From assembly GCA_913063125.1 (NCBI GenBank), contig CAJXZM010000046.1:4683-36682 (forward strand): 32,000 nt of DNA, written 5' to 3'. Within the stretch, counting starts at the first letter, position 1. Every line of letters starts with the position of its first letter. This DNA is from an uncultured Gammaproteobacteria bacterium. GTDB taxonomy: Bacteria > Pseudomonadota > Gammaproteobacteria > Pseudomonadales > Ketobacteraceae. A model generated the notes under the pieces. The model saw only the letters and a program-made list of their open reading frames with translations, made no database searches and was not told the origin of the DNA. The position numbers and the translations under genes were made by a program. Of the stretch, positions 7,728 through 25,953 are shown one piece after another.

Positions 7728-7786
7728 TACACGCCGACAAATCCAACTCATGCTAGTTAAAAATTCAGATTTCCCTTATAAATAAC

Positions 7787-7807
7787 CTTGCTATCCTGAA
7801 TAGCAAG
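7787..7807. promoter_or_regulatory. Perfect 8-bp inverted repeat CTTGCTAT-N5-ATAGCAAG between mcrC and the XRE gene (candidate operator or weak terminator)
   Basis: cttgctatcctgaatagcaag lies 56 bp upstream of the XRE start. No T-run follows it, so a protein-binding palindrome is at least as likely as a terminator. Confidence 0.3.
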
Positions 7808-7862
7808 ATGCAAGCTAGTCCACCATTCTGTTTATCTAAATATGCATAAGTCAGGTTAAATA

Positions 7863-8075
7863 ATGATCAGATGCAACCTTTCTCGCCTCATGGGTGAGCA
7901 AAAAATGAACATTTCAGATGTTGCTCGTGAAAGTGGCTTTAATCGAAGCACGATTTCATTGTTGTACCACGAAAAAGCGAGCCGTGTAGACCTAGACGTT
8001 GTGGAAAAACTCTGTGAAGTATTTAACTGTCAAGTTGGCGATCTATTAGAAGTTATCAAAGGGGAAGAAGAGTAA
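7863..8075 (+). CDS. Small XRE/Cro-C1-type helix-turn-helix transcriptional regulator (70 aa)
   Basis: MIRCNLSRLMGEQKMNISDVARESGFNRSTISLLYHEKASRVDLDVVEKLCEVFNCQVGDLLEV is a textbook short Cro/C1 HTH layout. Its stop TAA (8073-8075) directly abuts the pglW ATG (8076). Confidence 0.85.
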   Translation: MIRCNLSRLMGEQKMNISDVARESGFNRSTISLLYHEKASRVDLDVVEKLCEVFNCQVGDLLEVIKGEEE

Positions 8076-11000
8076 ATGGATAAACTCTGGAAACAGATCA
8101 CCCCGTCAGACTATGCCTGGGAACGCGAGGCACTAGAATTCGCTAAGCAAATTTTACCGGATCATGATCCCTACCGTGCCTGGGCAAATTTTGAATTTAT
8201 TGCTCTTGATGGCTCCATCAATGAAATTGACCTGATGGTGCTGACCCCCAAAGGGCTATTTCTCATTGAAATCAAATCACATCCTGGGGTTATGCGTGGT
8301 GACGCAGGTACCTGGATATGGGAAAAGCCTACCGGCGGACGTAAGGTTTTTGATAGCCCGCGTATACTCACGGATCGAAAGGCGAAAAAGCTCGCTTCTC
8401 TATTACAGATACAACCCTCAGCAAAACGAAGTAAAGAGCGCATACCATTCCTCACTGCACATGTTTTCCTTTCAGCAGAGAACTTGGTTAATAAATTGGA
8501 TGGGCCTGCTCGTTTGAATGTTTGTACTCGTAAGAACTTCCTCCATGATATTACTCACATGGATGAAAACTGGCGCCATCGAAAAATGAATGCACCAATT
8601 GCCAAAATGCTATCCAGAGCCGTGGAAGAGGCGGGTATTAAAGAGTCTGTCCGTATGCGCAGGGTAGGGCTTTATGAATTAAAAGAGCTGCTGGATGAGG
8701 CTGATCACTTTCAAGAGTGGCAAGCCGTCCATACGGATTTAGGGATAGAACGTAAGGTGCGTATTTATCTAACTTATGGAAAGCCCGATGTTGAGGCACA
8801 ACGATTACAGAAGGCGGCTCAGCTGGAATTTCGTTTGCTGGAAGGAATAGAGCATCCAGGTATTCTTAAAGCGAAAGACTATCAAACTCACGATCACGGG
8901 CCCGCATTAGTCTATGAATATGACGCCAGTGCTACTCGACTGGATCATTTCCTATTACAAAGCAATGAAGTTAAACGCCTCGATACCCTGCAATCATTGA
9001 ACCTGTTGAGACAAATAGCAGAAGCAGTGCAATACGCCCATGGTCAAAAGCTCTATCACCGTGCGTTAAGTCCTCAAAGCATTTTGGTGAAACAGCTAAA
9101 TGACGACAAATACAGTATAAAAATAGCGAATTGGTCTACCGCTGAGCGAATATACGAAACAGAAACACAGCAAATTAGTGCGTTTAGCCACCTGAGTAGA
9201 ATGGTTCAGGAAGAGGCGAGCCCTTACATTGCCCTTGAGGCACATGCAAATGGTGAGGCGGATGGTGTCCATATGGACGTTTTCTCTCTCGGTGCGATTG
9301 CCTACCATTTATTTACCGGTAAAAAACCCGCAGAAAATGACTTAGATCTACAGGACAAACTAGGACGTGGTAATGGCCTGCAAATAACCGATGAAATAAA
9401 CGGTGCTAGCGAGATGCTGCAATATATGGTGCAGTATGCCACTCATCCCGATACCAGTAGTCGGCTTGGCTCGGTAGATGAATTTATTACCTGCCTGGAT
9501 GAGATTGAAGAAGAAATAACTCGCCCTGATACTCAACGCAATAGCGATCCGACTGAGGCGAATAAAGGGGATACCTTTGAAGGTGGCATAACCGTTAAAA
9601 AACGCTTGGGTAAAGGTGCCTGCTCTGTTGTGTTCTTAGTAGATCATCAGGGCCAGGAGAGAGTTCTCAAAATTGCTTCTGACCAAACGCACAATCGACG
9701 AATAATGCAGGAAGGTGAAACACTGGCCAAGTTCAGGCATCAAGCGATTGTTGCCTACCACAAAACTCTTGATATAGCGGGTCACACCTCATTGCTTATT
9801 GATTACACCAGTGAGGGTACTCTCGCCCAACGTATTCGCGAGTATGGTGCTGTGCAGCTTGAGTTGTTAGAACGTTTTGGAGATGACCTGTTAAGCGCAC
9901 TGGCACACGTTGAAGACAAATCTATTGTACACCGTGACTTAAAGCCTGAAAACATGGGGTTAACGTTGCAGGGTAGCCAACTTCACCTTGTATTGTTCGA
10001 TTTCTCACTTTCGAATGTAGGCTCCGATAATATTACTGCTGGTACAGTCGCCTACATGGATCCCTTTATTCGAGACGTCGGTAGACGCAGATGGGATGAT
10101 TTTGCAGAACGATTTTCTGCAGCCTTAACACTCTATGAAATGTCTGCCGGTGCGCTGCCCGGTTGGGCCTCAACTGTAGGCTTACCACTACAAATTGAAG
10201 GTGAGTTAGAAATAGACCGCACCGTATTTGACCCCACTATACGGGATCGAATGGTGGCTTTCTTTAAGAAAACCCTTGTAAGAGATGTACGAGAGCGTTT
10301 TGCCAATGTAGGGGATATGCTACGTGCATGGAGAGAAATTTTTCACGAAGCACGCAAAGATTCACAGCATCCTACGGTGCATGATGATGACAAAACCTGC
10401 CCAATCGCTGAAGCAAAGCTAGATACCCAAATTGGCCTGTTGAAACTGACACCGCAAGCGCTGGATACCTTAAGTCGTCGCAACATCAATACGGTTGCTG
10501 GTTTGATTAAGCTTAGTCGGAGTCGAGTGCGTGTCTGGACGGGAGTAGGAGTAAAAACCCGCACCGAATTATCGGATGTTATAGGCCAGCTGCAAAATGT
10601 ACTTGGAGTTGATCAACAAGCAAAAGTATTGGAAAAAAGTAATAACACAATCGTTAGTGTTGATCGTCTCTTCACTCTCTTGATGCCTAAAGTAACCAAG
10701 GCAACAGACCAAACAAAACTACGTTTTCTCAATGAATATCTTGGACGCTTAGACGAGAGTGCTCCTAAGGGTACTCATAATGTGCATTGGCCAACGACTG
10801 CCACGCTCAGTGCTCATATTGGTATTGAAACCTCAGAAGTGCGTGCGCTCACTAGCAAAGTACAAACACAATGGGGTAAAACAAAAGCAATTACCGAGTT
10901 ACGTGATGAAATAATCGAGCTGCTGGATGAAAATGGTGGTGTGATGACGGCTATTGAAATTGCAGACGCCGTTTTATTGCGCCGAGGCTCTGTACAAGAC

Positions 11001-12275
11001 AGCCCATTACGAGAACGCTGGGCCCATGCGGTTGTTCGTGTTGCCGTTGAAACTGAGCTTAGCAAACAAGAGCCACGGTGGATGTTACGCCGCTCTGGGA
11101 ACCGTTTTCTGATTGCTGATGATCGTAGTGCCATGGGAGAAGAGTTGGCAGATTATGCCAATGATTTAGGATACCTAGCGGGGGAGTGTGCCGAGCAGCA
11201 GCCTTTGTTGTCACCCATTAGGGCGCTAGAAAAAATTCGTGCCGTTCCTTCGCCAGATTCTTTTGTGGGCCTGAGTAATCACCGATTGTTGAGGCTTGCT
11301 GCCGCGGCTTCCCAAGATGCTGCCTTATCCAGCCGGGCGGAGTTCTACCCACGAAACATGAAAGCAGCTCTTGCCCTAGAGCTGGCTCAAGGCGCGCTAT
11401 TAGGTAGCAAAGCGCTGGGTATTGATGAAGTTAAATCCCGAGTGGCAGGCCGTTATCCAGCAGCAGAAACTCTACCAGGACGTCCACAACTGGATAACTT
11501 GGTTCAAGATTTAGATATTGGTTTTCAGTGGGATGGCAGCTATCAATTTCCGATGGGGAGTAATCGAGACAAAGGTGCCTATTGCTTGCCGATTGCAGGG
11601 TTAACCAACCTAGCTTCAACAAGCAAAACCCAGTATCACTTCACTAGCCACGGAGAACTCGACACCACTAGCGTAAAAGAGATCAAAGCGCTTAATCAGG
11701 AAATTAGCGCAGCAGTCAACTCAGCTCGTTTCTTAGCACTTACCGTAAGGCCACGGCAGTGGCTGCTGGCGAAGGAAAAGCTTTGTCGTGAGCACCCGCT
11801 AAAAAATATCAGTTTTGATGAGCTGTTGTTGCGCCACTTACATCAGCAGTGTGAATCTATGCCCAAACCACCGGACTGGAAAGTGGTACTTAAAGCTGAT
11901 GCAGCGGAGTCAAACTCTAAAAACTGGCAAAACCTACAACGCCTAGTACAACGGGTTTTACCTGCTATGGCAGATGAAATTAAAAATGCAGGCCAGCCTG
12001 TATTGCTGACTGAACCAGGATTAATCGCCCGTTATGAGTTGGTAAATACCTGGTTGAGTGACTTGCGCCAATACCTAATGAATGCCACTGAGGTGCATGG
12101 GCTGATTATGCTGATAGCGGCTGATGCGCAAAGTGCGTCAGCTGTGATTGATGGTGTCACCGTGCCCACAGGAGCAGGCAGTACAGAATTTGCACGCATA
12201 CCCAGTGTTTGGCTGGACGGTGGCCTTGAAGTATTGCAGTTAGATGATGGAAGAAAATCAGGAAGTAATCCATGA
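8076..12275 (+). CDS. pglW: PglW: BREX type 2 serine/threonine protein kinase (NERD nuclease-like N-terminus, degenerate kinase domain, intact kinase domain, HhH-like motif, long C-terminal region)
   Basis: NERD-like segment: GSINEIDLMVLTPKGLFLIEIKSHPG. First kinase-like domain, with catalytic residues replaced: LYHRALSPQSILV, KIANWSTAE, DVFSLGAIAYHLFTGKKP. Second domain, with intact motifs: GKGACSVVF, VLKIA, IVHRDLKPENMGL, LFDFSLS, GTVAYMDP. LTPQALDTLSRRNINTVAGLIKL resembles an RpoA-CTD-like helix-hairpin-helix. The position ahead of pglX matches type 2 BREX. Confidence 0.9.
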   Translation: MDKLWKQITPSDYAWEREALEFAKQILPDHDPYRAWANFEFIALDGSINEIDLMVLTPKGLFLIEIKSHPGVMRGDAGTWIWEKPTGGRKVFDSPRILTDRKAKKLASLLQIQPSAKRSKERIPFLTAHVFLSAENLVNKLDGPARLNVCTRKNFLHDITHMDENWRHRKMNAPIAKMLSRAVEEAGIKESVRMRRVGLYELKELLDEADHFQEWQAVHTDLGIERKVRIYLTYGKPDVEAQRLQKAAQLEFRLLEGIEHPGILKAKDYQTHDHGPALVYEYDASATRLDHFLLQSNEVKRLDTLQSLNLLRQIAEAVQYAHGQKLYHRALSPQSILVKQLNDDKYSIKIANWSTAERIYETETQQISAFSHLSRMVQEEASPYIALEAHANGEADGVHMDVFSLGAIAYHLFTGKKPAENDLDLQDKLGRGNGLQITDEINGASEMLQYMVQYATHPDTSSRLGSVDEFITCLDEIEEEITRPDTQRNSDPTEANKGDTFEGGITVKKRLGKGACSVVFLVDHQGQERVLKIASDQTHNRRIMQEGETLAKFRHQAIVAYHKTLDIAGHTSLLIDYTSEGTLAQRIREYGAVQLELLERFGDDLLSALAHVEDKSIVHRDLKPENMGLTLQGSQLHLVLFDFSLSNVGSDNITAGTVAYMDPFIRDVGRRRWDDFAERFSAALTLYEMSAGALPGWASTVGLPLQIEGELEIDRTVFDPTIRDRMVAFFKKTLVRDVRERFANVGDMLRAWREIFHEARKDSQHPTVHDDDKTCPIAEAKLDTQIGLLKLTPQALDTLSRRNINTVAGLIKLSRSRVRVWTGVGVKTRTELSDVIGQLQNVLGVDQQAKVLEKSNNTIVSVDRLFTLLMPKVTKATDQTKLRFLNEYLGRLDESAPKGTHNVHWPTTATLSAHIGIETSEVRALTSKVQTQWGKTKAITELRDEIIELLDENGGVMTAIEIADAVLLRRGSVQDSPLRERWAHAVVRVAVETELSKQEPRWMLRRSGNRFLIADDRSAMGEELADYANDLGYLAGECAEQQPLLSPIRALEKIRAVPSPDSFVGLSNHRLLRLAAAASQDAALSSRAEFYPRNMKAALALELAQGALLGSKALGIDEVKSRVAGRYPAAETLPGRPQLDNLVQDLDIGFQWDGSYQFPMGSNRDKGAYCLPIAGLTNLASTSKTQYHFTSHGELDTTSVKEIKALNQEISAAVNSARFLALTVRPRQWLLAKEKLCREHPLKNISFDELLLRHLHQQCESMPKPPDWKVVLKADAAESNSKNWQNLQRLVQRVLPAMADEIKNAGQPVLLTEPGLIARYELVNTWLSDLRQYLMNATEVHGLIMLIAADAQSASAVIDGVTVPTGAGSTEFARIPSVWLDGGLEVLQLDDGRKSGSNP

Positions 12276-15200
12276 TAAATCGAAGTGAACTATTAAAAGA
12301 CCTACAGCGTGAATTACCAAAAATTGAAAAGGATATTTTGGCTTATAGTGAGTCGCGTGAGGATTTAACTGCGCATTTGCAAGAAGAATACAAAAAGGCC
12401 AAAGATGCTGGGCGTACAGCAGAGCACTTTGTTTCCTGGCTAGAAGCACAAGTTACCCAAGCAGCAGTATCATGGGTATTGACCTGTGTGTTTGTTCGTT
12501 TTCTTGAAGATAATGGTTTGTTAGCAGAGCCTGTTTTGTCTGGGCCGGTGTCGAACCTGCACGGTGAAAAGCCCCTGCAGTATGCGAAAGAACGCATGGT
12601 GGCATATTTTAATGAAAATCCCACTCATGAAGAGCGTGAGTATTTATTTAGCCTGTTTGAACAGATAGAACAATTTCCGGTTATTGCTGAGCTACTGGAT
12701 CATCGCCATAACCCGCTTTGGCAGATTCCGGTTTCTGCTGATGGCGCTAAAAGCTTGATCGATTTTTTTCAGAAAATTGACGCTGAAAGTGGCGAAATTG
12801 TTCATGACTTTAACGATTCTGACTGGGATACCCGTTTTTTGGGAGACTTGTATCAGGACCTTTCTGAGTCAGTGCGCAAACGTTATGCGCTGCTGCAAAC
12901 GCCTGAATTTGTTGAGAGCTTTATCCTGGATTATACCCTGGATAAAGCCAAAGATACTTTTGGTTTAAAAGGCTTAAGGCTTATTGATCCTACCTGTGGC
13001 TCTGGTCACTTTTTGTTAACCACATTTGAACGGGTATTCGATGATTGGGTAAAGAGAGAGCCAGGTGAAAATAGTCGGGTATTGGCACAACGAGCGTTGG
13101 ATGTGGTGCATGGAGTGGACATTAACCCTTACGCTATTGCTATTTGTCGTTTTCGATTGTTGATTGCTGCGATGAAAGTCGCAGGTACTACAAAGATTAT
13201 AAACGCGCCGAATTTCCATTTTAATTTAGCTTGTGGTGATTCATTGCTGCATGGGAACCGTTTCGAGTGGCAAGGGCAAGGTTTGCAAGCAGAGTTGATT
13301 GATGAAGATCCAATAAATCATGCCTTGGAGGTAGAAGATAAGGATAAATTGCTGAAGATATTGGGGCAGCAGTATCATGCGGTTGTAGGCAATCCGCCAT
13401 ATATTGTTGTTAAGGATAAAGCTCTGAACCAAGCGTACCGAGATAGATACTCAACCTGCCATAGGCAGTATTCATTGGGCGTACCCTTTACTGAACGATT
13501 TTTTGATTTAACGATCCCTGCAGCTGATGGCTGTAAGTCTGGGTATATGGGGATGATCACTGCAAATAGTTTTATGAAAAGGGAATTTGGTACAAAACTT
13601 GTGCAGGAATATTTGGTTAGGAAAGATGTGACGCATGTGATTGATACTTCGGGTGCATACATACCAGGACATGGAACGCCAACAGTAATTATTTTTGCCA
13701 GAAATCGGCGTGCCAATAATGCAGTTCCCATCCGGTCTTTGTTAGGGAACCGTGCAGAGCCCTCAACACCTCATTTAGCGGAAAACGGTCGTGTTTGGAG
13801 TTCAATAATTAGTCTTCTTGAGCATCCAGGAAAAGAGAATGAATTTATTTCAGTGGAAGACAGACCTCGAGAAATTTATTCAACGCATCCTTGGTCTCTA
13901 AGCGGAGGGGGGGCATCGGCTGTTAAACAAATGTTGGAAGGGGAATCTCATTGTACTTTGGGAGAACTTGTTTCTGATGTGGGTTACTTAGCGGTAACAG
14001 GGGAGGATTCTGTCTTTATGCAAAGTCATTTTGTACTTGAGCGAAAGGGTATTCGCTGTTGGAAAAAAATGGCTTATGGAGAGGTTGTTAGGGATTGGGG
14101 GGTTGATTTCAATACGGCCTGTATTTGGCCTAATGATGATTCAGGTGTACCTATAGACTTAGGGGTTTTGACTGGTGTTCTCAACTTTATGTGGCCGTTT
14201 AAGGTTCCTTTAAGGAATAGAAAGGCCTTTGGAGTTCCAGTAGAAAAAAAGGGAATCCCATGGTGGCAGTTAAGAGAGATATATGGCCAACGTCTAGGTC
14301 GCAGAAATCTAATATTTTTTGCAGAGATAGCTAGTCATAATCATTTTTCGCTTGTCGAGGGAGGGACGTTAACTAACCAAACCGCACCAATTGTGGCTTT
14401 GTCCTCTAGTGCTGATAAGAATGACTATTTGGAGTTGGTTGGATATCTAAATAGTTCGGTTGTTGGATTCTATATGAAACAGGTGAGCCATCAAAAGCAA
14501 TTAACAGGCGGTGACGGAGTTCGTATTGAATTTATATCAAAAGTTCCATATCAGTTTTCATCGACAGCGATTAAGAAAATTCCAATTCCACCCGTCTATG
14601 GAAATATAAATTTTAAAGAAAGAATGCTGAAACTCTCAGCCGCAATTGACCAAATTCAATCTGAAATAGATCGAGAGGATGGTATTTCTTCTATAAATGA
14701 GTCTTTTAAAGTGGGGGTTTCAATCGATGTGCTATGGAAGGAAAAGCAGCGATTAAAACGTGACCTTCGAAAAAAACAGGTTCTACTACAAGAAGAGATT
14801 GATTGGGTTTGTTATTGGGGTTTTGGGTTATGTGATGAAAGCTTTCTTTCTGATGTCGAGCGCTGGTTGGGTGTCGGCCTGAGTGTGGGGCAGCGCCCCT
14901 TTGAAATTCAGTCGCAGCTTAATCAAGACGGATTTCTAGTTTCTTCTGATGTGCCTTCATTGTGGCCTGAAGAAATGAAAAACTTGTGGCGAAGGCGTAT
15001 AAATGCAATAGAGGATATTCGAGAAATAGGAGTTATTGAGAACCCTCACTACAAACGACGATGGATAGGTCGGCAAGGACTTTTTAATAAATCTTCTCGC
15101 TCTGACGAGTTAAAGCTGGCTTGCAAACAATGGATGCTAACTCGTATTGAAAACCAATATTTGAAGACTTTTAATCGCTTAATAACTTGCGCATCACTAG

Positions 15201-15997: not shown

Positions 15998-16009
15998 AGA
16001 AATAAAGCT

Positions 16010-19000
16010 ATGACATTAATTAAAGACCTGATTGAAATCCCAGAAAAGGTTCAGCGTGGTGATTTTGTTTTAAATCTCTCCAGCGGCCTGGCAGAAGAGG
16101 CGGTGAGTCAAACTCTGGGGCAGTATGTTGTTACACCTCAGTTGGCTAAATCTTTCGATGATGCCTTAAGCTTTATAAAAAACACGGTGGTTGGTGGGCA
16201 AAAGCGTCAGAAAGGGGCTTATCTGCATGGAAGCTTCGGTAGTGGTAAATCGCATTTTATGGCGGTGATGCATTTGCTGTTGCAGGGAAATACACAGGCT
16301 AGGGCAATTAACGAGTTGGCTCCCGTGGTGAGCAAAAACGATGATTGGTTACAGAAAACCAATATTCTGCTAGTGCCATACCACATGATCGGAGCCGCCA
16401 GTATTGAGGCAGGTATTTTGGGTGGGTATGCCAAGTATATTAAGAAGCTACACCCAGAGGCGCCAGTGCCCGGCTTTTATATGAGTAATCGCCTTTTTCA
16501 GGATGCCAAGCAACTGCGGGAGAATATGGGTGATGAGGCTTTTTTCAATACGCTAAATACTGGCGCAAGTGCAGCAGACGTTGATAATGGCTGGGGTGAC
16601 TTGGCGAGTGGTTGGGATGCCATTAGTTTTGACTCCGTATTAAACGAGCAATCTGGGTCTGAGGATAAAGACCGCCTTGTAGGTGATCTTGTAGGTACTT
16701 TCTACAGCTCAATGGTTGATATGGCCAATACAGAGTATGGAGGTTACGTCGATTTTGATGAGGGCCTGCGTATAATGACTGAGCACGCAAAGTCGCTGGG
16801 TTATGATGCGGTGATTCTTTTCCTTGATGAATTGATCCTCTGGTTAGCGAGCCACCTTTCAGATCAAAAATTCATTGCCGGGAATATTCAAAAGGTTGTG
16901 AAGTTGGTCGAACCCAGTGCACAGAGGGCCTTACCGATTGCTAGCTTCATAGCTCGTCAGCGCGACTTGAGAGAGTTTGTCGGTGATCAGTATACAGGTG
17001 CTGCACAAACGGCATTGAGTGATTCCCTTAAGTATTGGGAAGGGCGATTTCATACGATTACCCTGGAAGACAGAAACCTTCCGGTGATAGCCGAGCGCCG
17101 TCTGCTTAAGCCGATTAATGAGGCCGCGAAAAACCAAATTAATGATGCCTTTTCTTCAATGGATGCTCGGATGCGTGAGGATGTGCATAATATCCTGCTT
17201 ACCAATAAAGGGGATCGTGAGATGTTTCGCTCGTTATACCCTTTCAGCCCTGCGTTAGTGCAGGCGTTGGTGGCTTTGTCATCGGCGCTGCAACGTGAAC
17301 GTACCGCATTAAAGGTAATGTTAATGTTGCTAGTGGATCAACGGGAGACCTTGGAGTTAGGCAGCTGCATTCCGGTAGGCGACCTCTATGATGTGATTGG
17401 TTCAGAAGCAGAGCCATTCTCAGAAGCCATGCGCCTGCACTTTGATAATGCCAAAATCCTCTTTGAAAGAAAGTTGATTCCGCTGTTGGAAGAAGAGCAC
17501 CACGTTAGTTTTACAGCACTGGGTGAGCTTCCTGATACCGACACAGCCAAGCGTAGCTTTAATAATGATATGCGGTTAATTAAAACGCTACTACTCTCGG
17601 CACTGGTGCCAGAAGTGGAGTGTTTTAAACAGCTTACCGCGACTAAGTTAGCGGCGCTGAATCACGGCACCATTAAATCCCCCATCCCTGGTCGTGAAAC
17701 TCAAACTGTGCTGCAGAAATGTCGTAAGTGGGCAGGGCGTGTAGGTGAGATTAAGATCAGTGATGATAATAATCCAGTTATAGCGATTCAGCTTTCCGGA
17801 GTTGATACTGAGGCCATTTTAGAAGATGCCAAAGTACATGATAATGATGGTTCTCGGCGCAAGCTAGTTAAGGATCTTGTGTTCGAGGCCTTTGGCGTAA
17901 AAGATGAAAATCAGATGTTTTTAGAGCATCAGTTTGTCTGGCGGGGAACTCGCCGGAATGTAGAGCTGCTGTTTAGCAATATTCGTGAAATTTCTGACTT
18001 TACTACTTTTGAGGCGAGAGGGGATGATTGGAAAGTCATTATTGATTATCCGTTTGATAGTGATGGCCGTTCCCCTGCGGATGATAAAGCTCGCATCCAG
18101 GAGTATGAGGCTACCGGTGGTTCTGCTCGTACCCTGTGTTGGTTACCATACTTCCTTAGCCAAAACGCACAGCGCGATTTAGGCACACTAGTAACGCTGG
18201 AATATGTACTGAAGAATGATGAGCGATTTAATTCCTTCGGTAAACATTTGAGCCCTGTTGATCGCGGTCAAGCGAGAACGTTGCTTGATAATCAACGCAG
18301 TCAATTACGTCAACGTATTAAAGATTACTTAATGGGAGCGTACGGAGCTGCAGAACCTCTCCCTAATTCCTTGGATGATAGTGGTTCATTAGAGAGCCAG
18401 GTTATTTCCTTGGAGCAAGGGTTTAGTCCCAACCTTCCTATTGGTAGTGATTTGGGCAAGGCCTTCGAAAATCTATTGGGGCAAGCACTCAGTTTTCAAT
18501 ATTCGGCTCACCCGGAGTTTGAAAACTTAATTAAGACGGTTGACCTGGACAAGGTATTGGTTCAACTACGTCGTGCTATTCATGCCAGTAATGGCCGTAT
18601 TGATGTTGACAGCCCCTTGCGTCCGCTGATGAGATCGATTGCACAGCCGATGGGTTTGGGTGAAATGCACGAGCGCCATTTTATTTTTAAGGAAGATTGG
18701 CCCAAGCAATTGAGTCGTGAGCTGGCCAAGGACGAACAGGCGGGAGACCCTGTAACGGTTAAACGTTTACGTGCGGCAATCGATCAACCAACAGAAAAAG
18801 GCTTGCCGAACGCGCTGCAGAACTTGTTAATTATGGTGTTTGCTGAGCACGGCCAATATGCGTTTACCTTGCATGGGGGAGATTTCGAGGTTGTTTTAAA
18901 AGATATTCGTGATGATCTGGTGTTGGTAAAACAGGATTTGGCAGAGCCGTTAGTTTGGAAGGAGGGGATTGATAATGCAGGGGCTGTTTTTGGTGCTACA

Positions 19001-19681
19001 GTGAATAGCTTGCGCACTGCGAATCATCAGAACGCTCTGCAAAAAAAGGTATTGGATACCGTCAACCGATATTTGACGGATTGTGAACAACTAATCGTCG
19101 AGATTAAAACAGCATTAATTAAACTTAATCAGAGTAATCAATGTAAACGTTTGCAGAATGCAGAATACGCGTTACAACTTTCACAAGACTTGAAAAATAA
19201 AGAGGGTGCTGAGCTGGTTGCTGCTCTGGCAAACATTAAACCTGTGACGAGTTTACAGGCGTTAGCGATAAGCATGACATCGGCTGCCAGTGTTACTCAA
19301 TCATTACAAGATAATAATTGGGATCTGTTAGTCAGCATTTGGTCTTCTGACGATGTTGAAGGCAAGCGAATTAAAAAGCAGGTTTGTGATGCGGTAGTTG
19401 CCGATGAATTGGTGACATCAATAGGGCCAGCATTAAAGCAAGCGCAGGTTGATGCCACGGGAATGATTACTCGACGGACGACTTTGCCAGTGAAACAGGA
19501 GCCTGAATCTATCCCTGAGCGACCGCCCAGGGGGCAGCGAGTGGTTAAACAGGCGCAAAAATCGGGTTTAACGGGTAGTCAGGTAAAATCTTTGTTCGCT
19601 GAAATTGAAGAACAATTGGATGAGGGTTACCTGCTAGATGTGAGTTACAGCATTATTACATCCGATGACGGTGGGGAATAG
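16010..19681 (+). CDS. pglY: PglY: large P-loop ATPase of BREX type 2 (BrxC/PglY family)
   Basis: Walker A is HGSFGSGKSHF and Walker B is VILFLDELILW. It is 1223 aa and sits between pglX and pglZ. Confidence 0.85.
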   Translation: MTLIKDLIEIPEKVQRGDFVLNLSSGLAEEAVSQTLGQYVVTPQLAKSFDDALSFIKNTVVGGQKRQKGAYLHGSFGSGKSHFMAVMHLLLQGNTQARAINELAPVVSKNDDWLQKTNILLVPYHMIGAASIEAGILGGYAKYIKKLHPEAPVPGFYMSNRLFQDAKQLRENMGDEAFFNTLNTGASAADVDNGWGDLASGWDAISFDSVLNEQSGSEDKDRLVGDLVGTFYSSMVDMANTEYGGYVDFDEGLRIMTEHAKSLGYDAVILFLDELILWLASHLSDQKFIAGNIQKVVKLVEPSAQRALPIASFIARQRDLREFVGDQYTGAAQTALSDSLKYWEGRFHTITLEDRNLPVIAERRLLKPINEAAKNQINDAFSSMDARMREDVHNILLTNKGDREMFRSLYPFSPALVQALVALSSALQRERTALKVMLMLLVDQRETLELGSCIPVGDLYDVIGSEAEPFSEAMRLHFDNAKILFERKLIPLLEEEHHVSFTALGELPDTDTAKRSFNNDMRLIKTLLLSALVPEVECFKQLTATKLAALNHGTIKSPIPGRETQTVLQKCRKWAGRVGEIKISDDNNPVIAIQLSGVDTEAILEDAKVHDNDGSRRKLVKDLVFEAFGVKDENQMFLEHQFVWRGTRRNVELLFSNIREISDFTTFEARGDDWKVIIDYPFDSDGRSPADDKARIQEYEATGGSARTLCWLPYFLSQNAQRDLGTLVTLEYVLKNDERFNSFGKHLSPVDRGQARTLLDNQRSQLRQRIKDYLMGAYGAAEPLPNSLDDSGSLESQVISLEQGFSPNLPIGSDLGKAFENLLGQALSFQYSAHPEFENLIKTVDLDKVLVQLRRAIHASNGRIDVDSPLRPLMRSIAQPMGLGEMHERHFIFKEDWPKQLSRELAKDEQAGDPVTVKRLRAAIDQPTEKGLPNALQNLLIMVFAEHGQYAFTLHGGDFEVVLKDIRDDLVLVKQDLAEPLVWKEGIDNAGAVFGATVNSLRTANHQNALQKKVLDTVNRYLTDCEQLIVEIKTALIKLNQSNQCKRLQNAEYALQLSQDLKNKEGAELVAALANIKPVTSLQALAISMTSAASVTQSLQDNNWDLLVSIWSSDDVEGKRIKKQVCDAVVADELVTSIGPALKQAQVDATGMITRRTTLPVKQEPESIPERPPRGQRVVKQAQKSGLTGSQVKSLFAEIEEQLDEGYLLDVSYSIITSDDGGE

Positions 19682-19686
19682 CCATT

Positions 19687-22497
19687 ATGCCTAATTCTTC
19701 TGCAGTTAAGGCACAGACAACCAAAGCCTATGCCCCTACGCCTGTAGTGAATCAGCTGCAGGCAATCTACCAACGAGATGATGCAGCTGATTGTGTTGCA
19801 CTGGTGTGGCCAGAGGCCTTAGTTGATGTAGAAATAGTGGTAAATGTTGATAATAAGCGGACTCGCTTTGTTTATTGCCACTCTGAGCTTGCGATGCGTG
19901 AGGCATTAGTTGATCACCGTGATGCCAGTGAGCGTTTGGTGCTGCTTTCCAAGTTTGATGAAGTACATTTAGCCAAAGATGTGCTGGCGAGAATCTGGAA
20001 GAATGAACCGCAACGTATTAGCCCTTGGAAGACGTTACAGCAATTAATCAAAGTACGAGAAGTTGATCCTCGTTTGCCTAAGAAAAATGGCCGATGGATG
20101 GCGGAGGCATTGCTGGGTTGCTTTGATCGTTTTCAGGAGAAAATAGCCTTTGGCGAGGTGTTGGATCAAGACAATGCTTGGCGCGCGCTGGCGCTTGGTT
20201 ATCTGAATTATGATGAGCCAGCGTTGGATTTACAGTCATTGTTTAGCTGGTCTATCAGTAATGACGTTTCACCACTTATCAAGAAACTACCGTCAGATGT
20301 AAAGGATAATCTTGAGGATTGGCTACACCAGGGTATTCCGCAAACTAGCCAGTTAGTTCAAACCCTTCTGCTGAATGAGCAAGGTGATGACTTGCTGTCG
20401 ATTGGCCTTGCTTGTTCAGTGATGTATTACAACGGTATTGAATCACTTACGGTAGTTGATATAACTCAACTCCATATTAGCCGGGGTGTTTTTAAAGAGC
20501 GCTTCTTAGCGGGAACAACGTTTGATCAACATCTGTTGCAACAATTTGGTGGTGACGCCATCAAAACTACATTGCGGGTATTAAAAGAAAAAGGGCATCA
20601 GGTAATTAATGAGGCGCTGGGTAAAACGGAGCAAATACTGGCTAGCTTAGATTTGTTACCTGCCGTAGAACTCTCAGAGGTGTTGCCTGGTAGTCTTAAA
20701 CTGCGTTTTACGCGTTATGCTGAGTCCTTATCTTGTGTATTGGCAGGAGGTGAGGTTGAGCAGGCTGAATCTGCTTTGTCGGTGCTTAAACGACATGCGT
20801 TTGTCGGAATGCCTGCGCAGCAAGAATCAGTTGAGCGCGCCGACATGGCGCTTCGTTTGGCACGGTGGTTAAAGCAGGCTCCTGAACAGTCTGGCAGTGC
20901 TGCGAAATCAATCTCTGAATATATACAACAAGGCAGTTATGCCGATTGGGCGCGTTCGGTTGTGTGGTCAGGTGATGTGCATGAGGTGCTAAACAACGTC
21001 TACCAACAGCTAACAGAACGAGTTAGCCATATCCGTAAAAATCAGAATCAAGCTTTTTCACAACAGTTAGATGCTATTGCTCGTGGTGATGTGTTGGGTG
21101 ATCACTATATTCCGGTTGAGAATGCATTAGAGCGTATTGTTGCTCCCATTGCTGAGAAAAACCCTGTATTACTGCTTGTGTTAGATGGTATGAGTGAGGC
21201 GGTTTTTCGGGAGTTAACCGAAGATTTAATAAAACATCACTGGCTTGAACTTAAAGTTGCAGGTAACTCAGGAGATCAATGTTTGGTGGCAGCATTGCCG
21301 ACAGTTACTAAGGTTAGCCGCTGTTCCTTGCTTTCGGGCCGATTGGCTGAAGGTGTTGCGAATGATGAGAAGAAAGCGTTTAGTGGACATGCGCTATTAA
21401 AGAAAATCGCATCTACTAAATACCCACCAATGATATTTCACAAGCAAGATTTGCAGCAGACGGGCACTGGAGCGTTAAACGCAGATGTTCGAGCAAAACT
21501 GGCTAGCACGGGATACCGGGTATTAGCGGCCGTCATTAATGCGATTGATGATCAGCTTTCCAGTAGTTCTCAAGTGTCGGTTAATTGGATGTTGGATAAT
21601 GTCGCGTTGTTGCGTCAAGTGTTAGAGGCTGCTCGTGAATCGGGCCGTGTAGTGGTGATTACTAGCGATCATGGACATGTGCTCGATCATCATTCTCTTT
21701 ATCAAGCGCCGGATTCTTCTTCTGAAAATAATGTTAACGGTGAGAGGTACCAGCTTATCTCTGATAGTGTTTCTGAGCATGAAGTTAGGGTGTCGGGTGA
21801 GCGAGTAGTGACAGCGAAACAATCTGTAGTACTACCTTGGACAGAGCAGTTACGTTATACCAAATCGAAAAATATGGGTTATCACGGAGGAGGTAGTCTT
21901 CAGGAGGTGGTCATTCCGTTCGGTGTGTTTGTGAGTGCAGCTGATATTGATGTGCTTGAGGGTTGGTCAGAAGTACCGCGTAGTTTTCCCAAGTGGTGGT
22001 ATCAAGAATCAGTTAAAGCTGAAATAGCCAGCAGTTTTATTAATCCTGCTTATACAGATGCAAAGCCAGCCAGGAAACCCAAAAAATCCAAGAATGCTGA
22101 TGCAGTGGCTGAGGTGATGGATGATATGTTTGCTGCCACAGCTGATGCCGCTACAATTATAGAGGCAGCTACAGAGCCGGAAGCGGCTGCAGAAATGTGG
22201 ATAGAGGATCTTTTCAGTTCTGCTGTATATCTGCAGGTAAAGAGCAGGGTGGGTCGAACCGGGATTAAAGAAGAAGAGCTAAGAGCGTTGATTGAATTTT
22301 TGGATCAGCATCAAGGGCAGGCGATGGAGGCTGCAGTGCTTCGTTATTTAGAAAAGCCTAAAATCAGATTGAGGGGTTTTCTGGCGGGTGCTCAAAAATT
22401 ATTGAATGTTGATGGGTACCCCATTCTTTCAGTCGAGCGTGATTCTCAAACTATAAAGCTCAATATCGTTGATCTCAAAAAACAATTTGAGCTGTGA
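19687..22497 (+). CDS. pglZ: PglZ: alkaline-phosphatase-superfamily BREX core protein
   Basis: PglZ-domain metal-site motifs are PVLLLVLDGMSEAVF and VVVITSDHGHVLD, followed by GYHGGGSLQEVVIP. It is 936 aa. Confidence 0.9.
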   Translation: MPNSSAVKAQTTKAYAPTPVVNQLQAIYQRDDAADCVALVWPEALVDVEIVVNVDNKRTRFVYCHSELAMREALVDHRDASERLVLLSKFDEVHLAKDVLARIWKNEPQRISPWKTLQQLIKVREVDPRLPKKNGRWMAEALLGCFDRFQEKIAFGEVLDQDNAWRALALGYLNYDEPALDLQSLFSWSISNDVSPLIKKLPSDVKDNLEDWLHQGIPQTSQLVQTLLLNEQGDDLLSIGLACSVMYYNGIESLTVVDITQLHISRGVFKERFLAGTTFDQHLLQQFGGDAIKTTLRVLKEKGHQVINEALGKTEQILASLDLLPAVELSEVLPGSLKLRFTRYAESLSCVLAGGEVEQAESALSVLKRHAFVGMPAQQESVERADMALRLARWLKQAPEQSGSAAKSISEYIQQGSYADWARSVVWSGDVHEVLNNVYQQLTERVSHIRKNQNQAFSQQLDAIARGDVLGDHYIPVENALERIVAPIAEKNPVLLLVLDGMSEAVFRELTEDLIKHHWLELKVAGNSGDQCLVAALPTVTKVSRCSLLSGRLAEGVANDEKKAFSGHALLKKIASTKYPPMIFHKQDLQQTGTGALNADVRAKLASTGYRVLAAVINAIDDQLSSSSQVSVNWMLDNVALLRQVLEAARESGRVVVITSDHGHVLDHHSLYQAPDSSSENNVNGERYQLISDSVSEHEVRVSGERVVTAKQSVVLPWTEQLRYTKSKNMGYHGGGSLQEVVIPFGVFVSAADIDVLEGWSEVPRSFPKWWYQESVKAEIASSFINPAYTDAKPARKPKKSKNADAVAEVMDDMFAATADAATIIEAATEPEAAAEMWIEDLFSSAVYLQVKSRVGRTGIKEEELRALIEFLDQHQGQAMEAAVLRYLEKPKIRLRGFLAGAQKLLNVDGYPILSVERDSQTIKLNIVDLKKQFEL

Positions 22498-22531
22498 ATT
22501 AATAAAAAAGCAAACAATAAGAGAAAGCACC

Positions 22532-23851
22532 ATGAGCATTAGCCAACAACGAAGACAGGATATTCTCGATGCATTGCGAAGAGGTACCGTTCCTCAATAT
22601 GGCTTAGATGCATTAGCGGTTGGTTTACAGACGTTTGAAAGTGCCTTTGATGAAGAGCTGGAAAAGGTAGCGCGCGGTGGAGCGGCGTTTAAGGCTATAC
22701 GAGGAGAGTATGGTAGCGGTAAGACATTTGCCTCTCGATGGTTACGCGAGCGTGCATTTCGGCTTGGTTTCGCTTGTGCTGAAGTACAGGTCTCCGAAAC
22801 TGAAACGCCATTACATAAGTTAGAGACGGTTTACCGCAGGCTGATGGAACGATTAACAACACCCGATTCACCTTCTGGTGCATTTCGTAATATCGTTGAT
22901 TCTTGGTTCTATACACTGGAGGAAGACGTGTTGGAACAACAGGATATCGATCCTGATGATGTAGATACATTGGTTGAGGCAACAGATGCCTTGATGGAAA
23001 AACGTTTGGGGGAAGTCGTGAGAACTGCTCCTGCGTTTGCTTTAACGTTACGGGCCTATCGGCGTGCGTTGGTTGAAGGGAATGATGAAATTGCAGATGG
23101 TTTGCTAGCCTGGATGGCTGGGCAGCCGAATATCTCAGCTTCTGTAAAACGTTATGCAAAGATTAAAGGCGATATTGACCATTTTGGTGCGCTGAGTTTC
23201 TTGCAAGGTGTGCTGATGATATTAAAAGACTCGGGTCACCCAGGGTTGTTGTTGGTACTGGATGAAGTGGAAACTCTTCAGCGTATGCGAGGGGATGTTA
23301 GAGATAAAAGTTTGAATGCGTTGCGCCAACTGATGGACGAAGTCGATGGTGGGCGATTTCCTGGATTGTACCTTGTGATAACAGGTACCCCGGCTTTTTA
23401 TGATGGGCCAATGGGTGTGCAAAGATTGGCCCCTCTTGCACAGCGGTTGTCGGTAGATTTCGCGACGGATGCGCGTTTTGATAACCCAAGGGCTGTGCAG
23501 ATCCGGTTGAAGGGCTTTGATCGTTCGTCATTAGAGGAAGTTGGTCGTAAAGTACGGGATTTATACGCACAGAACAGCCAGGCACGCGAACGTGTTTCGA
23601 CGCTGGCAGATGATCGTTATATTGCCGACTTGGCAAATGCGGTGACGGGCAATCTGGGCGGTAAAGTTGGTATTGCGCCGCGTATTTTTCTTAAGAAATT
23701 GGTGGGTGATGTATTGGATCGTATTGACCAATTTGATGACTTCTCACCTAGAGAGCATTATGCATTAACGATTTCTGATACTGAGTTGACGGATGTTGAA
23801 CGCGCGTCTAAATCCGCAGACAGTGTTGATGATATAGAGCTAGATCTATGA
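22532..23851 (+). CDS. brxD: BrxD: BREX type 2 ATP-binding protein
   Basis: Walker A is IRGEYGSGKTF and Walker B is GLLLVLDEVETL. The N-terminus MSISQQRRQDILDALRRGTVPQ is typical of this family. I prefer the ATG at 22532 over the ORF-track start at 22469, which lies inside pglZ. Confidence 0.85.
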   Translation: MSISQQRRQDILDALRRGTVPQYGLDALAVGLQTFESAFDEELEKVARGGAAFKAIRGEYGSGKTFASRWLRERAFRLGFACAEVQVSETETPLHKLETVYRRLMERLTTPDSPSGAFRNIVDSWFYTLEEDVLEQQDIDPDDVDTLVEATDALMEKRLGEVVRTAPAFALTLRAYRRALVEGNDEIADGLLAWMAGQPNISASVKRYAKIKGDIDHFGALSFLQGVLMILKDSGHPGLLLVLDEVETLQRMRGDVRDKSLNALRQLMDEVDGGRFPGLYLVITGTPAFYDGPMGVQRLAPLAQRLSVDFATDARFDNPRAVQIRLKGFDRSSLEEVGRKVRDLYAQNSQARERVSTLADDRYIADLANAVTGNLGGKVGIAPRIFLKKLVGDVLDRIDQFDDFSPREHYALTISDTELTDVERASKSADSVDDIELDL

Positions 23852-25953
23852 GCGAGTTTGATAAGCTCCATCCAGCGTTACAGCACCATATTGTTAATAG
23901 TCTTGGCTGGCCTGGTTTGCGTCCCTTACAAGAGAGCACTATTCAACCTGTATTAGATGGTGAACATGCGATTTTATTAGCACCGACCGCAGGCGGCAAA
24001 ACGGAGGCAGCTTGCTTTCCTATATTTTCTCGTATGCTTACGGAGAATTGGACTGGGCTGAGTGTACTTTATATCTGCCCAATTAAAGCGCTGTTGAATA
24101 ACCTTGAGGAACGCCTTAGCTATTATGGACAGTTACTTGGCCGAAGTGTGGCTGTTTGGCACGGAGATATTAGCGCTTCTCGCAAAGCAAAAATTATTGC
24201 TGATCCCCCCGATATACTGTTGGCGACGCCTGAATCTTTAGAGGTAATGTTGGTATCCAACCGTATTGATCACCGTATTCTGTTTGCCAATGTACGAAGT
24301 GTCATTATTGATGAGGTTCACGCTTTTGCCGGGGATGACCGCGGTTGGCATTTGTTATCTGTATTGGAGCGAATCAGCGTTATTGCGGGACGAGAATTAC
24401 AGCGTTTGGGATTATCTGCGACAGTGGGTAACCCTGAGGTGTTATGCGATTGGTTGGCAAGCTCATGTGAGTCCAAACGCAGTGTGATTAACCCGCCTGC
24501 AGAAAATAATGTCGTTCCAGATGTTCAGGTCGATTGGGTGGGTTCGGTTCGTAATGCGGCTATTGTTATATCCCGTTTGCATCGTGGTGAGAAACGATTG
24601 GTGTTTGTTGATAGCCGCTCCCGAGTGGAAGAGCTGGCAATGGAGTTGAGAGGCTTGGGAGTGGCTACTTATGTATCACATAGCTGTCTTAGCCTAGAGG
24701 AGCGTTGCTCTGCAGAGGAAGCATTTTCTCAAGGTTCTGATTGTGTCATTGTCGCTACTTCCACTCTGGAGCTAGGTATCGATGTTGGTGATCTGGATAG
24801 AGTTATCCAACTAGATTCCCCCTTTACAGTCGCTTCTTTTCTTCAACGTATAGGTAGAACAGGGCGGAGAGCGGGTAGTTCTCGCAACTGCTTATTTCTA
24901 GCGACTAAAGAGGATGCGTTTCTTAGAGCGCTTGCATTGTTGAAATTATGGCAGAAAAATTTCGTTGAGCCGATTGAGCCACCAGCGAGACCGATGCATA
25001 TTTATGCACAACAAGTGATGGCACTGACACTACAAGAGAACGGCATCATTGCTCAGGATATCGGCGCATGGCTTGGAGCAATGCCTGGGTTTTCTTCTGT
25101 AGCGATTAAAGAAAGAGAACAAGCTGTTGAATACATGCTTTCGACGAGTGTTCTCCATTCTGATTCAGGTATTTTGGGGGTTGGACGCACAGGTGAAAAT
25201 TCCTTTGGCCAGAAAAATTTCATGGAGCTGTTTTCGGTATTTACTAGTCCACCAATGGTTAAGGTTTTCCATGGGAAGCAAGAGCTAGGTGAAGTTCATC
25301 AGCTGACCTTTGCTGTGAAGGAGGAGGGGCCTGCGCTGCTTACATTGGGAGGAAGAAGCTGGATAACCAAGTATATAGATTGGGCCCGAAAGAAAGCCTA
25401 TGTTGAACCAACAGATATGCGTGGACGCTCGCAATGGCTAAGTTCTGGACAGCCAATGCAGTATGAAATGTGCCAGGCTATCGCTGAAACCCTGTTAGAT
25501 GAGGACGTCCAAGACGGATTGTCTACGCGCGCTCAAAACCTGCTTGAGGAACTGAAGGAAGAGTTTGGCTGGTTGGAAGAGGGTAAGACAACACTTTTGA
25601 TTGATTCGGATGGAAACGCAAATTGGTGGACATTTTCTGGACGTCTCTTGAATGCCGCGTTTACTGAAGTTTTGGCGGGTGAAGCGGACAAGGTTGGCTC
25701 TGATAATTTGTGTATCACGTTTTCCCATGTGTATGATGTGGAGGCATTAGTGAATAAAGTCAGAGATATTATGGGCGGCAAATCGAGCGATATTTGCCTT
25801 TCCTTGGAAGAAGACTTTATTCAGGAACTCAAGTTTTCGGAATGCTTGGCGCAGAAGGAAATAGATAAAGAGATTTTGGCTAGGTATTCACTTGGTAGGG
25901 ATTTTGATCGTTTTGCACTGCGGGGACTTGTTATATTACATACGGGCATATGA
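23848..25953 (+). CDS. brxHI: BrxHI: Lhr-like DEAD/DEAH-box superfamily 2 helicase of BREX type 2
   Basis: ATGA overlap with the brxD stop. Helicase motifs are LAPTAGGKTEA (I), IIDEVHAF (II), LSATVGNP (III) and LQRIGRTGRRAG (VI). Confidence 0.85.
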   Translation: MSEFDKLHPALQHHIVNSLGWPGLRPLQESTIQPVLDGEHAILLAPTAGGKTEAACFPIFSRMLTENWTGLSVLYICPIKALLNNLEERLSYYGQLLGRSVAVWHGDISASRKAKIIADPPDILLATPESLEVMLVSNRIDHRILFANVRSVIIDEVHAFAGDDRGWHLLSVLERISVIAGRELQRLGLSATVGNPEVLCDWLASSCESKRSVINPPAENNVVPDVQVDWVGSVRNAAIVISRLHRGEKRLVFVDSRSRVEELAMELRGLGVATYVSHSCLSLEERCSAEEAFSQGSDCVIVATSTLELGIDVGDLDRVIQLDSPFTVASFLQRIGRTGRRAGSSRNCLFLATKEDAFLRALALLKLWQKNFVEPIEPPARPMHIYAQQVMALTLQENGIIAQDIGAWLGAMPGFSSVAIKEREQAVEYMLSTSVLHSDSGILGVGRTGENSFGQKNFMELFSVFTSPPMVKVFHGKQELGEVHQLTFAVKEEGPALLTLGGRSWITKYIDWARKKAYVEPTDMRGRSQWLSSGQPMQYEMCQAIAETLLDEDVQDGLSTRAQNLLEELKEEFGWLEEGKTTLLIDSDGNANWWTFSGRLLNAAFTEVLAGEADKVGSDNLCITFSHVYDVEALVNKVRDIMGGKSSDICLSLEEDFIQELKFSECLAQKEIDKEILARYSLGRDFDRFALRGLVILHTGI

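Follow-up and report, generated by a model that had tools for sequence, protein, structure and literature searches.

We analysed a 32,000-nt stretch of DNA from an uncultured gammaproteobacterium (assembly GCA_913063125.1, contig CAJXZM010000046.1, positions 4,683 to 36,682; hereafter the window), which carries a BREX (bacteriophage exclusion) locus headed by a small gene of the XRE family of helix-turn-helix (HTH) regulators. Judged from its sequence, the locus is almost certainly a type 2 BREX system (Pgl-type), complete, intact and apparently functional. It is an ordinary member of a well-catalogued kind, and its sole unusual feature is the XRE gene together with a palindrome upstream of it. 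The explanation that in our view accounts best for the observations, and which we hold with good confidence, is a type 2 BREX operon that the XRE protein would autoregulate from this palindrome. The evidence reported below concerns gene content, integrity, synteny and the conservation of cis-elements.

A complete type 2 BREX locus

The six genes that follow the XRE gene had been assigned in the original prediction as pglW, pglX, pglY, pglZ, brxD and brxHI, and independent profile libraries (PADLOC and NCBIfam) recovered each of these assignments. The PADLOC matches ran end to end (PglW 1523 bits, PglX 1328, BrxC/PglY 1492, PglZ 813, BrxD 694 and BrxHI 968), the BrxC-PglY match spanning PglY residues 1-1213. 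In NCBIfam the scores were 1646 bits for BREX_PglW (cut-off 990), 1271 bits for BREX_2_MTaseX, matched by PglX (cut-off 400), 778 bits for BREX_PglZ_2 (cut-off 200) and 676 bits for BrxD (cut-off 350), and BrxD also obtained 480 bits on the Pfam family BrxC_BrxD. As the E-values of the BREX profiles for the six proteins ranged from 0 to 1e-203, chance is no issue for these assignments. NCBIfam has no BrxHI model; the best matches of BrxHI there were Lhr-type DEXH helicases, in line with the Lhr-like character ascribed to it beforehand. The PglX models of BREX types 1, 5 and 6 reached 31-59 bits, and the NCBIfam models of types 1, 3, 5 and 6 as a whole only 30-59 bits. BrxA, BrxB and BrxL had no match among the 15 window proteins, comprising all large ORFs (open reading frames), that were scanned with PADLOC, and NCBIfam gave none either. 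We therefore rejected both hidden brxA, brxB or brxL homologues and another BREX subtype, which the original prediction had named as possible grounds for withdrawing the call, along with a failure to recover PglZ, PglX or the kinase.

The proteins also carry the motifs characteristic of their families. PglW matches the Pfam families NERD, Pkinase (twice) and RNA_pol_A_CTD and contains the motifs HRDLKPEN, DFS, GKGACSV and VLK (with the invariant Lys). PglX matches Eco57I, MmeI_Mtase and DUF7008, has NPPY at residue 374 and additionally matches profiles of type IIG enzymes. Walker A (GSFGSGKS) and Walker B (LFLDE) motifs are present in PglY, both Walker motifs are intact in BrxD, and BrxHI has helicase motifs I (APTAGGKT), II (DEVH) and III (SAT). 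The nearest relatives of PglW are consistent with the gammaproteobacterial host that had been proposed from the sequence.

An XRE gene linked to pglW

The extra regulator gene noted in the original prediction encodes a Cro/C1-type HTH protein of 70 aa, whose only Pfam matches are HTH_26, HTH_3 and HTH_31. Its predicted model is a bare five-helix domain with a predicted local distance difference test score (pLDDT) of 76.5. A fold search with this model retrieved SinR, DdrO, the N-terminal domain of CapH, C proteins of restriction-modification (R-M) systems and HipB; this search and a sequence search of solved structures returned generic XRE-fold regulators only, and gave no discrimination among functional classes.

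To get a picture of its linkage to pglW we compared related loci, which are referred to by L numbers. XRE orthologues of 64-78% identity abut pglW in Gammaproteobacteria bacterium UBA3067 (L001) and in L008, L021, L086 and L087, and an XRE homologue and pglW share 4 nt on two plasmids, one of Sphaerotilus sulfidivorans and one of Polaromonas naphthalenivorans, where PglW is 38-39% identical to that of the window and the Sphaerotilus XRE protein is 53% identical to the window XRE. The genes upstream of the XRE-pglW pair vary: the window has McrC there, L001 an integrase fragment, L008 and L021 other genes, the Sphaerotilus plasmid CRISPR cas genes and the Polaromonas plasmid an IS21 element. 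The junction itself, with 0 nt between the genes or an overlap of 1-4 nt, is kept in at least eight independent contexts in Gamma- and Betaproteobacteria.

More distant HTH_26 genes occupy the same place upstream of pglW in three further loci (L024, L026 and L029). In another 17 loci (L010, L013, L018, L036, L038, L044, L051, L055, L060, L061, L065, L068, L072, L076, L077, L079 and L082) pglW is preceded, at a distance of 2-177 nt, by a MerR/excisionase-type HTH_17 gene of 60-80 aa that is non-homologous to the XRE gene; the hosts are Halomonadaceae, other Pseudomonadota, Planctomycetota, Cyanobacteria and a metagenome-assembled genome of the Nitrospiraceae. When two HTH profiles were run against the 8050 small ORFs in 1.44 Mb of PglW loci they matched 23, all of them directly upstream of pglW on the same strand and none elsewhere, so that 23 of 73 informative loci had such a gene. 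Since both profiles were built from small ORFs upstream of pglW, the informative part of this result is that there were no matches elsewhere. Our literature search, which was incomplete, brought up no account of an XRE or small HTH regulator for type 2 BREX. Together these comparisons suggest that the XRE protein is probably a dedicated transcriptional regulator of the BREX operon, and because the HTH_17 gene occupies the same spot in other phyla, control from the head of the operon may be a recurrent and overlooked component of type 2 BREX.

A candidate operator upstream of the XRE gene

The 135-nt gap between mcrC and the XRE gene contains a perfect palindrome, CTTGCTAT-CCTGA-ATAGCAAG, with arms of 8+8 nt and a core, TGCTAT-CCTGA-ATAGCA, at 7789-7805. 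It is placed 56 nt 5′ of the XRE ATG, and the window holds one perfect copy. The palindrome is conserved upstream of XRE-pglW in L001/L085, L086, L087, L008 and L021 while the flanks diverge: the XRE-pglW loci resemble each other in DNA sequence from a few bases upstream of the palindrome onwards, and farther upstream the sequences are unrelated. On the two betaproteobacterial plasmids (L150 and L153) the corresponding elements read TGCTAT-GCTGC-GCAACA and TGTTAT-TCTGC-GCATCA and are located at -52 and -36.

We then extended the comparison to the XRE family at large, counting palindromes of the form 6-N5-6 with at most one mismatch and a CTG or CAG centre. Such a palindrome was found in 36 of 60 distinct upstream regions of XRE homologues, compared with 1.17 ± 1.08 in shuffled sequences (maximum 6 in 200 shuffles) and with 2 of 37 control regions taken 1.7 kb away. 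The arms differ by XRE subfamily (TGCTAT, TGATCT, TGTCAT, AGTACT, TGACCT, TTACCT and TGCCCT), and this is what one would expect from autoregulators of one family whose specificities diverge. At many of these loci two palindrome copies surround a TTGCAA box resembling a -35 element. In the window, manual reading of the left arm suggests a candidate extended -10 element (TGnTATCCT; TGnTATyCT in the clade), and operator and promoter probably overlap. On this evidence we lean slightly towards the palindrome being the binding site of the XRE protein.

Probable operon structure and proposed mechanism

Seven co-oriented ORFs without internal stops are packed on the + strand at 7863-25953 (Table 1). 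The coordinates and the ATGA overlaps at 12272 and 23848 given in the original prediction were correct, as was its statement that no gap exceeds 34 nt: the junctions measure 0 nt (XRE-pglW), -4 (pglW-pglX, ATGA), 12 (pglX-pglY), 5 (pglY-pglZ), 34 (pglZ-brxD) and -4 nt (brxD-brxHI, ATGA). Its description of the XRE gene as fused to the 5′ end of the operon holds in that the gene directly abuts pglW; there is no translational fusion, as the TAA stop of this separate 70-codon ORF (8073-8075) is followed directly by the pglW ATG at 8076. The start of brxD was moved from the TTG at 22469 of the mechanically called ORF to the ATG at 22532, 34 nt past the pglZ stop, because the BrxD profiles begin at residue 22 of the mechanical ORF.

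Table 1. Genes of the type 2 BREX locus and the candidate operator, in window coordinates.
Feature	Description	Position	Strand	Basis
Palindrome	candidate operator, may overlap promoter	7787..7807	none	perfect arms, conservation across loci
XRE	Cro/C1-type HTH, 70 aa, DNA-binding domain only	7863..8075	+	Pfam HTH_26, 6e-22, 78 bits
pglW	1399 aa	8076..12275	+	NERD nuclease-like, pseudokinase, Ser/Thr kinase, RNA polymerase alpha-CTD (C-terminal domain)-like, C-terminal half
pglX	BREX-2 N6-adenine DNA methyltransferase, 1241 aa	12272..15997	+	profiles, NPPY
pglY	BrxC-type P-loop ATPase, 1223 aa	16010..19681	+	PADLOC, Walker A/B
pglZ	BREX-2 alkaline-phosphatase-fold protein, 936 aa	19687..22497	+	NCBIfam, PADLOC, Pfam PglZ
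brxD	ORC/Cdc6-like AAA+ ATPase, 439 aa	22532..23851	+	NCBIfam, PADLOC, Pfam BrxC_BrxD
brxHI	Lhr-like superfamily 2 (SF2) DEAH helicase, 701 aa	23848..25953	+	PADLOC, Pfam DEAD + Helicase_C

From this spacing, the seven genes are most likely transcribed as one unit, from a start a short way upstream of the XRE gene. A scan for intrinsic terminators found no convincing one inside the operon, and after brxHI only a hairpin at about 25977-25999; since this hairpin has no T-run, read-through from brxHI into the next system is possible. The consensus promoter scan gave fewer promoter-like matches than shuffled sequences (26 vs 32.9), and among them were weak + strand matches within pglW and pglY. 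The GC content of the BREX block is 45.4%, vs 41% in the flanks.

In the mechanism that we propose, the operon would be transcribed from a promoter at the palindrome, and a dimer of the XRE protein would bind TGCTAT-CCTGA-ATAGCA, overlapping the promoter-like element, and so autoregulate the whole operon. By analogy with their families, PglX would methylate adenine at N6 in a specific motif and so mark DNA, the conserved core would consist of PglY and PglZ, PglW, with its NERD domain, kinase and DNA-binding or sensor half, would transduce or execute the response, and BrxD and BrxHI would supply an ATPase-helicase module. The last two, adjacent here and overlapping by ATGA, have been described as a linked ATPase-helicase pair (PMC12839542). 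In Streptomyces coelicolor PglW's kinase activity and the ATPase activity of PglY are required for resistance, PglX is toxic without PglZ, which counteracts it, and PglW appears to be toxic in Escherichia coli (PMC4365076). Autoregulation may thus fix the amounts of the toxic proteins PglW and PglX and keep the module self-contained when it moves between genomes. Such a role would be comparable to that of an R-M C protein or of BrxR in type 1 BREX, where deletion of brxR leads to higher expression and to toxicity (PMC9122589). The XRE protein lacks a sensor domain, and a further factor would be required for any response to infection.

A further element considered was a G7 run in pglX (13907-13913), as S. 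coelicolor Pgl phase-varies through a G8 tract in this gene (PMC4365076). Part of the conserved motif HPWS-x-GGG(G)A is encoded by this run; at this site relatives have a mixture of GGN codons, some of the GC-rich ones having G6-G7 runs, and three G7 runs per 32 kb are near expectation. Phase variation of pglX through the G7 run was therefore not supported, and it is still conceivable because the S. coelicolor tract is itself only G8.

XRE homologues at the head of other defence systems

The XRE family is found at the head of other systems as well. In a metagenome sample, pglW was preceded only by XRE homologues at least 77% identical. At loci chosen for sizeable downstream ORFs, and so not in an unbiased census, homologues of 45-71% identity directly precede brxA-brxB-brxC, DrmD of DISARM, DruE of Druantia, GmrSD and an HKD-Snf2 gene. 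Further genes directly after XRE homologues encode type I, IIG/MmeI-type and C5 methylases, a methylase-HNH protein, SIR2, MzaB, an RtcR-CARF protein and Fic. In two loci (L097, 6001-11172, and L102, 6001-11046) homologues of 62-63% identity directly precede the brxA-brxB-brxC genes that begin type 1 BREX operons, so that members of a single regulator family stand at the head of both BREX types.

Regulators of immune operons on record include C proteins, BrxR/CapW, CapH with CapP and CapK with CapS (PMC13373217). For a stand-alone XRE regulator of the present kind we found no description in the literature, with the search again incomplete. The XRE gene and its CTG-centred palindrome may make up a portable and self-contained control cassette, representing an undescribed family of immune-operon regulators that heads, in the same orientation, many defence systems: type 2 and type 1 BREX, DISARM, Druantia, GmrSD, R-M, SIR2 and Mza. 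We put this forward tentatively, its chances falling a little short of even. If it is so, the operator arms would co-vary with the protein subfamily.

Weighing the alternatives

Several observations weigh against an XRE-autoregulated type 2 BREX operon. PglY scored 1034 bits on the NCBIfam model NF047891 ('BREX-2 system ATPase PglY'), below the curated cut-off of 1700, so that the NCBI pipeline probably would not give it the specific name. About two thirds of the sampled PglW loci are without a detectable small HTH gene, which makes the regulator gene optional for type 2 BREX. In the intergenic region there is no second copy of the palindrome within 3 mismatches, where many homologues have two, and from mcrC to the XRE gene no sigma-70 site turned up on the + strand in the consensus promoter scan. 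Conservation within the BREX-2 clade is stronger in the left arm of the palindrome than in the right, and some of it could for this reason reflect a promoter element rather than an operator. Finally, deleting mad1, the analogous first gene of the methylation-associated defence system (MADS), barely affected defence.

A different system with similar genes (another BREX subtype, MADS or a Dnd/DISARM hybrid) or a decayed remnant might be suspected from the partial match of PglW to MAD6 (253 bits), the weak match of the XRE protein to mad1 (E = 2.7e-4) and the type IIG matches of PglX. We rejected MADS, as the MAD6 score is below the NCBIfam cut-off of 460 and the remaining mad components, mad7 and mad8 included, are absent. 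The type-2-specific models of PglX and PglZ score far above their cut-offs, with those of types 1, 3, 5 and 6 staying as low as given above, and a remnant is contradicted by seven full-length ORFs with intact motifs. A different system is effectively refuted by the PADLOC and NCBIfam profiles, and we leave it next to no probability. The XRE gene could instead be an incidental neighbour, left behind by a mobile element or forming the edge of the McrBC module upstream: HTH genes of the XRE family abound in islands and prophages, the family of the window gene is not confined to type 2 BREX, and a mad1-type first gene is dispensable in MADS. We hold this to be very unlikely, given that the XRE-pglW junction is kept in its eight or more contexts while the upstream genes differ, that 23 of the 23 matched small HTH ORFs lie directly upstream of pglW, and that mcrC and the XRE gene are separated by a gap with a conserved palindrome.

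Two further readings concern what the XRE protein acts on. It might be a HipB-like antitoxin restraining PglW, or a repressor that is released when PglW phosphorylates it, comparable to CapK-CapS. As in HipB-HipA, a small XRE gene abuts a Ser/Thr kinase gene to which it is probably translationally coupled, HipB is among the fold matches, PglW is apparently toxic when expressed alone, and de-repression of an immune operon through phosphorylation of a repressor by a kinase has a precedent (PMC13373217). Such a role is unlikely, because the XRE family also heads kinase-free systems, with close homologues in front of type 1 BREX, GmrSD, methylase and SIR2 genes. Moreover, the protein consists of an HTH domain alone and has no additional domain for interactions, the kinase domains of PglW are Hanks-type (Pfam Pkinase and PK_Tyr_Ser-Thr, no HipA match), and most PglW loci are without the XRE gene; all in all, we see little prospect for it. 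Somewhat more room has to be left for a locus that is not one operon, in which internal promoters (for example before pglX, pglY or brxD) drive sub-operons and the XRE protein controls pglW at most. The S. coelicolor genes form two operons (pglWX and pglYZ), weak promoter-like matches lie within pglW and pglY, and many relatives carry insertions of 0.5-5 kb at the pglW-pglX and pglX-pglY junctions, which indicates that blocks of type 2 BREX can be uncoupled. Against this, all junctions in the window are short and two are ATGA overlaps, promoter-like matches are scarcer than in shuffled sequences, and the scan of the operon for intrinsic terminators found no convincing one. We regard sub-operons as rather improbable here, with internal promoters a possible addition to the autoregulated operon that is compatible with it and does not exclude it.

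Distribution of related loci

A search with PglW gave 2194 homologues at E ≤ 1e-20. The best of them, with up to 93% identity, came from marine Gammaproteobacteria, and dozens of gammaproteobacterial homologues are named "BREX system serine/threonine kinase PglW" by NCBI. Scanning one genome per species, we found full-length PglW relatives in Gammaproteobacteria, Planctomycetota, Acidobacteriota, Cyanobacteria, Myxococcota and Desulfobacterota, with the order pglW-pglX-pglY-pglZ conserved among them. A survey of 2026 listed type 2 BREX in 1309 taxa and dissected PglW, BrxHI and BrxD domain by domain (PMC12839542). The rarity implied by the original prediction was thus overstated: type 2 BREX outside Actinobacteria is common and already annotated.

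The window locus is without the insertions found in many relatives. The genes inserted there encode a YhcG/DUF1016 PD-(D/E)XK nuclease, a CopG-MazF toxin-antitoxin pair, ParA-like and hypothetical proteins, and an ATPase (L001, 14194-15237; L151, 7300-7846; L150, 17121-20400; L153, 6954-8123).

Genomic neighbourhood

The window is part of a defence island of an uncultured, probably marine gammaproteobacterium, known from a 240-kb contig of JGI metagenome 3300030037. Directly upstream of the BREX locus is an McrBC-type restriction pair (4012-7727), consisting of an McrB-like AAA+ protein of 796 aa, with AAA_5, the McrB lid and an N-terminal domain matching PADLOC PDC-S57, and McrC of 440 aa (Pfam McrBC, 323 bits). 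Downstream of brxHI, at 26090-28491, a gene for a PtuA-like ATPase (PDC-M01A 647 bits, PtuA1 622 bits) and that of its PDC-M01B partner (279 aa, 293 bits) overlap by one base; this pair has a GC content of 39% and is a candidate two-gene defence system, with no clear terminator between it and brxHI.

Next comes a stand-alone trypsin-like peptidase (28774-29430; Pfam Trypsin_2), which weakly matches the protease part of the PADLOC retron-type 'RT-Protease_XI' models, with no reverse transcriptase nearby. A non-coding direct repeat of 83 nt (29581-29663 and 29978-30060; 73% identical, 397 nt apart) and a pair of 27-nt repeats (at 29758 and 29797) precede tRNA-Glu(UUC) at 30185-30260, the one gene at the gathering threshold in the Rfam scan, which has a strong terminator hairpin after it (about 30269-30300). 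At 30102-30169 we observed a tRNA-sized fragment that resembles both ends of a transfer-messenger RNA (tmRNA; Rfam tmRNA 21 bits, E = 6e-6, far below gathering) and ends ...GGTTCGATCCCGCTAGGCTCCACCA, 15 nt before the tRNA gene. This fragment could be the remnant of an attachment site at the right end of the island. On the left side of the window, the ORFs at 209-1762 and 2895-3794 had no match in Pfam, PADLOC or NCBIfam; the 1.1-kb gap between them contains a 93-nt tandem repeat (1843-2027; 2 copies, 78% match) with an A9-11 run. The 10 kb upstream of the window (L149) contain no integrase, intact tmRNA or tRNA target. They encode, at 1-9949, a 1434-aa VgrG-like spike of a type VI secretion system, the immunity proteins Imm49 and Imm11, an Rhs fragment and a fragment of an IS240-family transposase, so that anti-bacterial and anti-phage conflict genes are clustered together.

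Significance and comparison with known systems

As a type 2 BREX locus the window adds little, since the type is known from more than 1300 taxa and close relatives that can be handled more easily exist in cultured strains of Pseudomonas, Shewanella, Halomonas and Microbulbifer. Its practical value lies in an insertion-free, moderately AT-rich version of 18 kb with its own regulator and promoter region, properties convenient for synthesising it as a cassette and testing it in E. coli. There it could address the mechanism of type 2 BREX, including the role of the kinase and the methylation of host vs phage DNA. The new part is the operon head, the XRE gene with its conserved palindrome, a modestly interesting regulator that is worth following up. 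Were the cassette reading true, a bare XRE protein with its class of operators would allow defence operons and their promoters to be located by a simple rule based on sequence, and a sensor-less family would join the known regulators of such operons.

The closest annotated BREX-2 loci include those of Gammaproteobacteria bacterium UBA3067, Microbulbifer sp. ZKSA004 and Alkalimarinus alittae, with PglW 82-93% identical in the closest, and those on the plasmids of S. sulfidivorans and P. naphthalenivorans CJ2 are likewise annotated. The UBA3067 contig and both plasmids share the XRE-pglW head and the upstream motif of the window; the flanking island of the window differs from those of its annotated relatives. 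RefSeq labels the XRE genes of both plasmids 'helix-turn-helix transcriptional regulator', and the PglY homologue on the Sphaerotilus plasmid merely 'DUF6079 family protein'.

With the Pgl system of S. coelicolor A3(2) the window shares six gene families (brxD and brxHI according to the definition of type 2 BREX), the order pglW-pglX-pglY-pglZ, and the NPPY, kinase catalytic and PglY Walker A motifs that are essential in that organism. It forms one compact block of about 18 kb, whereas the S. coelicolor genes form two operons 6 kb apart; the two-operon arrangement had been stated in the original prediction, in agreement with PMC4365076. Further differences are the probable gammaproteobacterial host, the GC content of 45%, the XRE gene at the head, and a pglX tract of G7 that encodes a conserved Gly run, vs G8 in S. 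coelicolor. PglW of the window is 29% identical to that of an actinobacterial plasmid from Streptomyces sp.

MADS (mad1-mad8, Pseudomonas aeruginosa) resembles the window in being a methylation-associated operon with a small regulator-like first gene, mad1, and a NERD-kinase protein, MAD6; in place of the other mad genes the window has PglY, PglZ, BrxD and BrxHI. CapH-CapP and CapK-CapS likewise place an HTH repressor beside an immune operon, and the N-terminal domain of CapH is a fold match of the window XRE protein (7t5u, TM-score 0.71). The genes of CapH and CapP are divergent, and the pair responds to DNA damage. Among the window proteins scanned, no CapP (ImmA/IrrE-type) metallopeptidase or CapK kinase is adjacent to the XRE gene, whose neighbours encode McrC and PglW.

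The regulators that come closest in arrangement are BrxR/CapW and the C proteins. BrxR/CapW is encoded by the first gene of a defence operon with which it is co-transcribed, binds a pseudo-palindrome upstream of its own gene's start and fronts many different systems (PMC9122589, PMC9122601). It has a winged HTH-WYL-WCX architecture and is unrelated in sequence to the window XRE protein, a 70-aa Cro/C1 HTH domain without WYL or WCX. C proteins such as C.AhdI, C.BclI and C.Esp1396I are likewise small and of the XRE fold; their genes lie just upstream of a potentially toxic gene in the same orientation, with palindromic boxes upstream. The window protein aligns with these three at TM-scores of 0.67-0.75 with a sequence identity of only 16-21%, and belongs to the Pfam family HTH_26, whereas C proteins usually belong to HTH_3. 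Since its gene precedes the whole operon, methylase included, it cannot stagger the expression of methylase and effector as C proteins do. Some of its homologues do head R-M genes.

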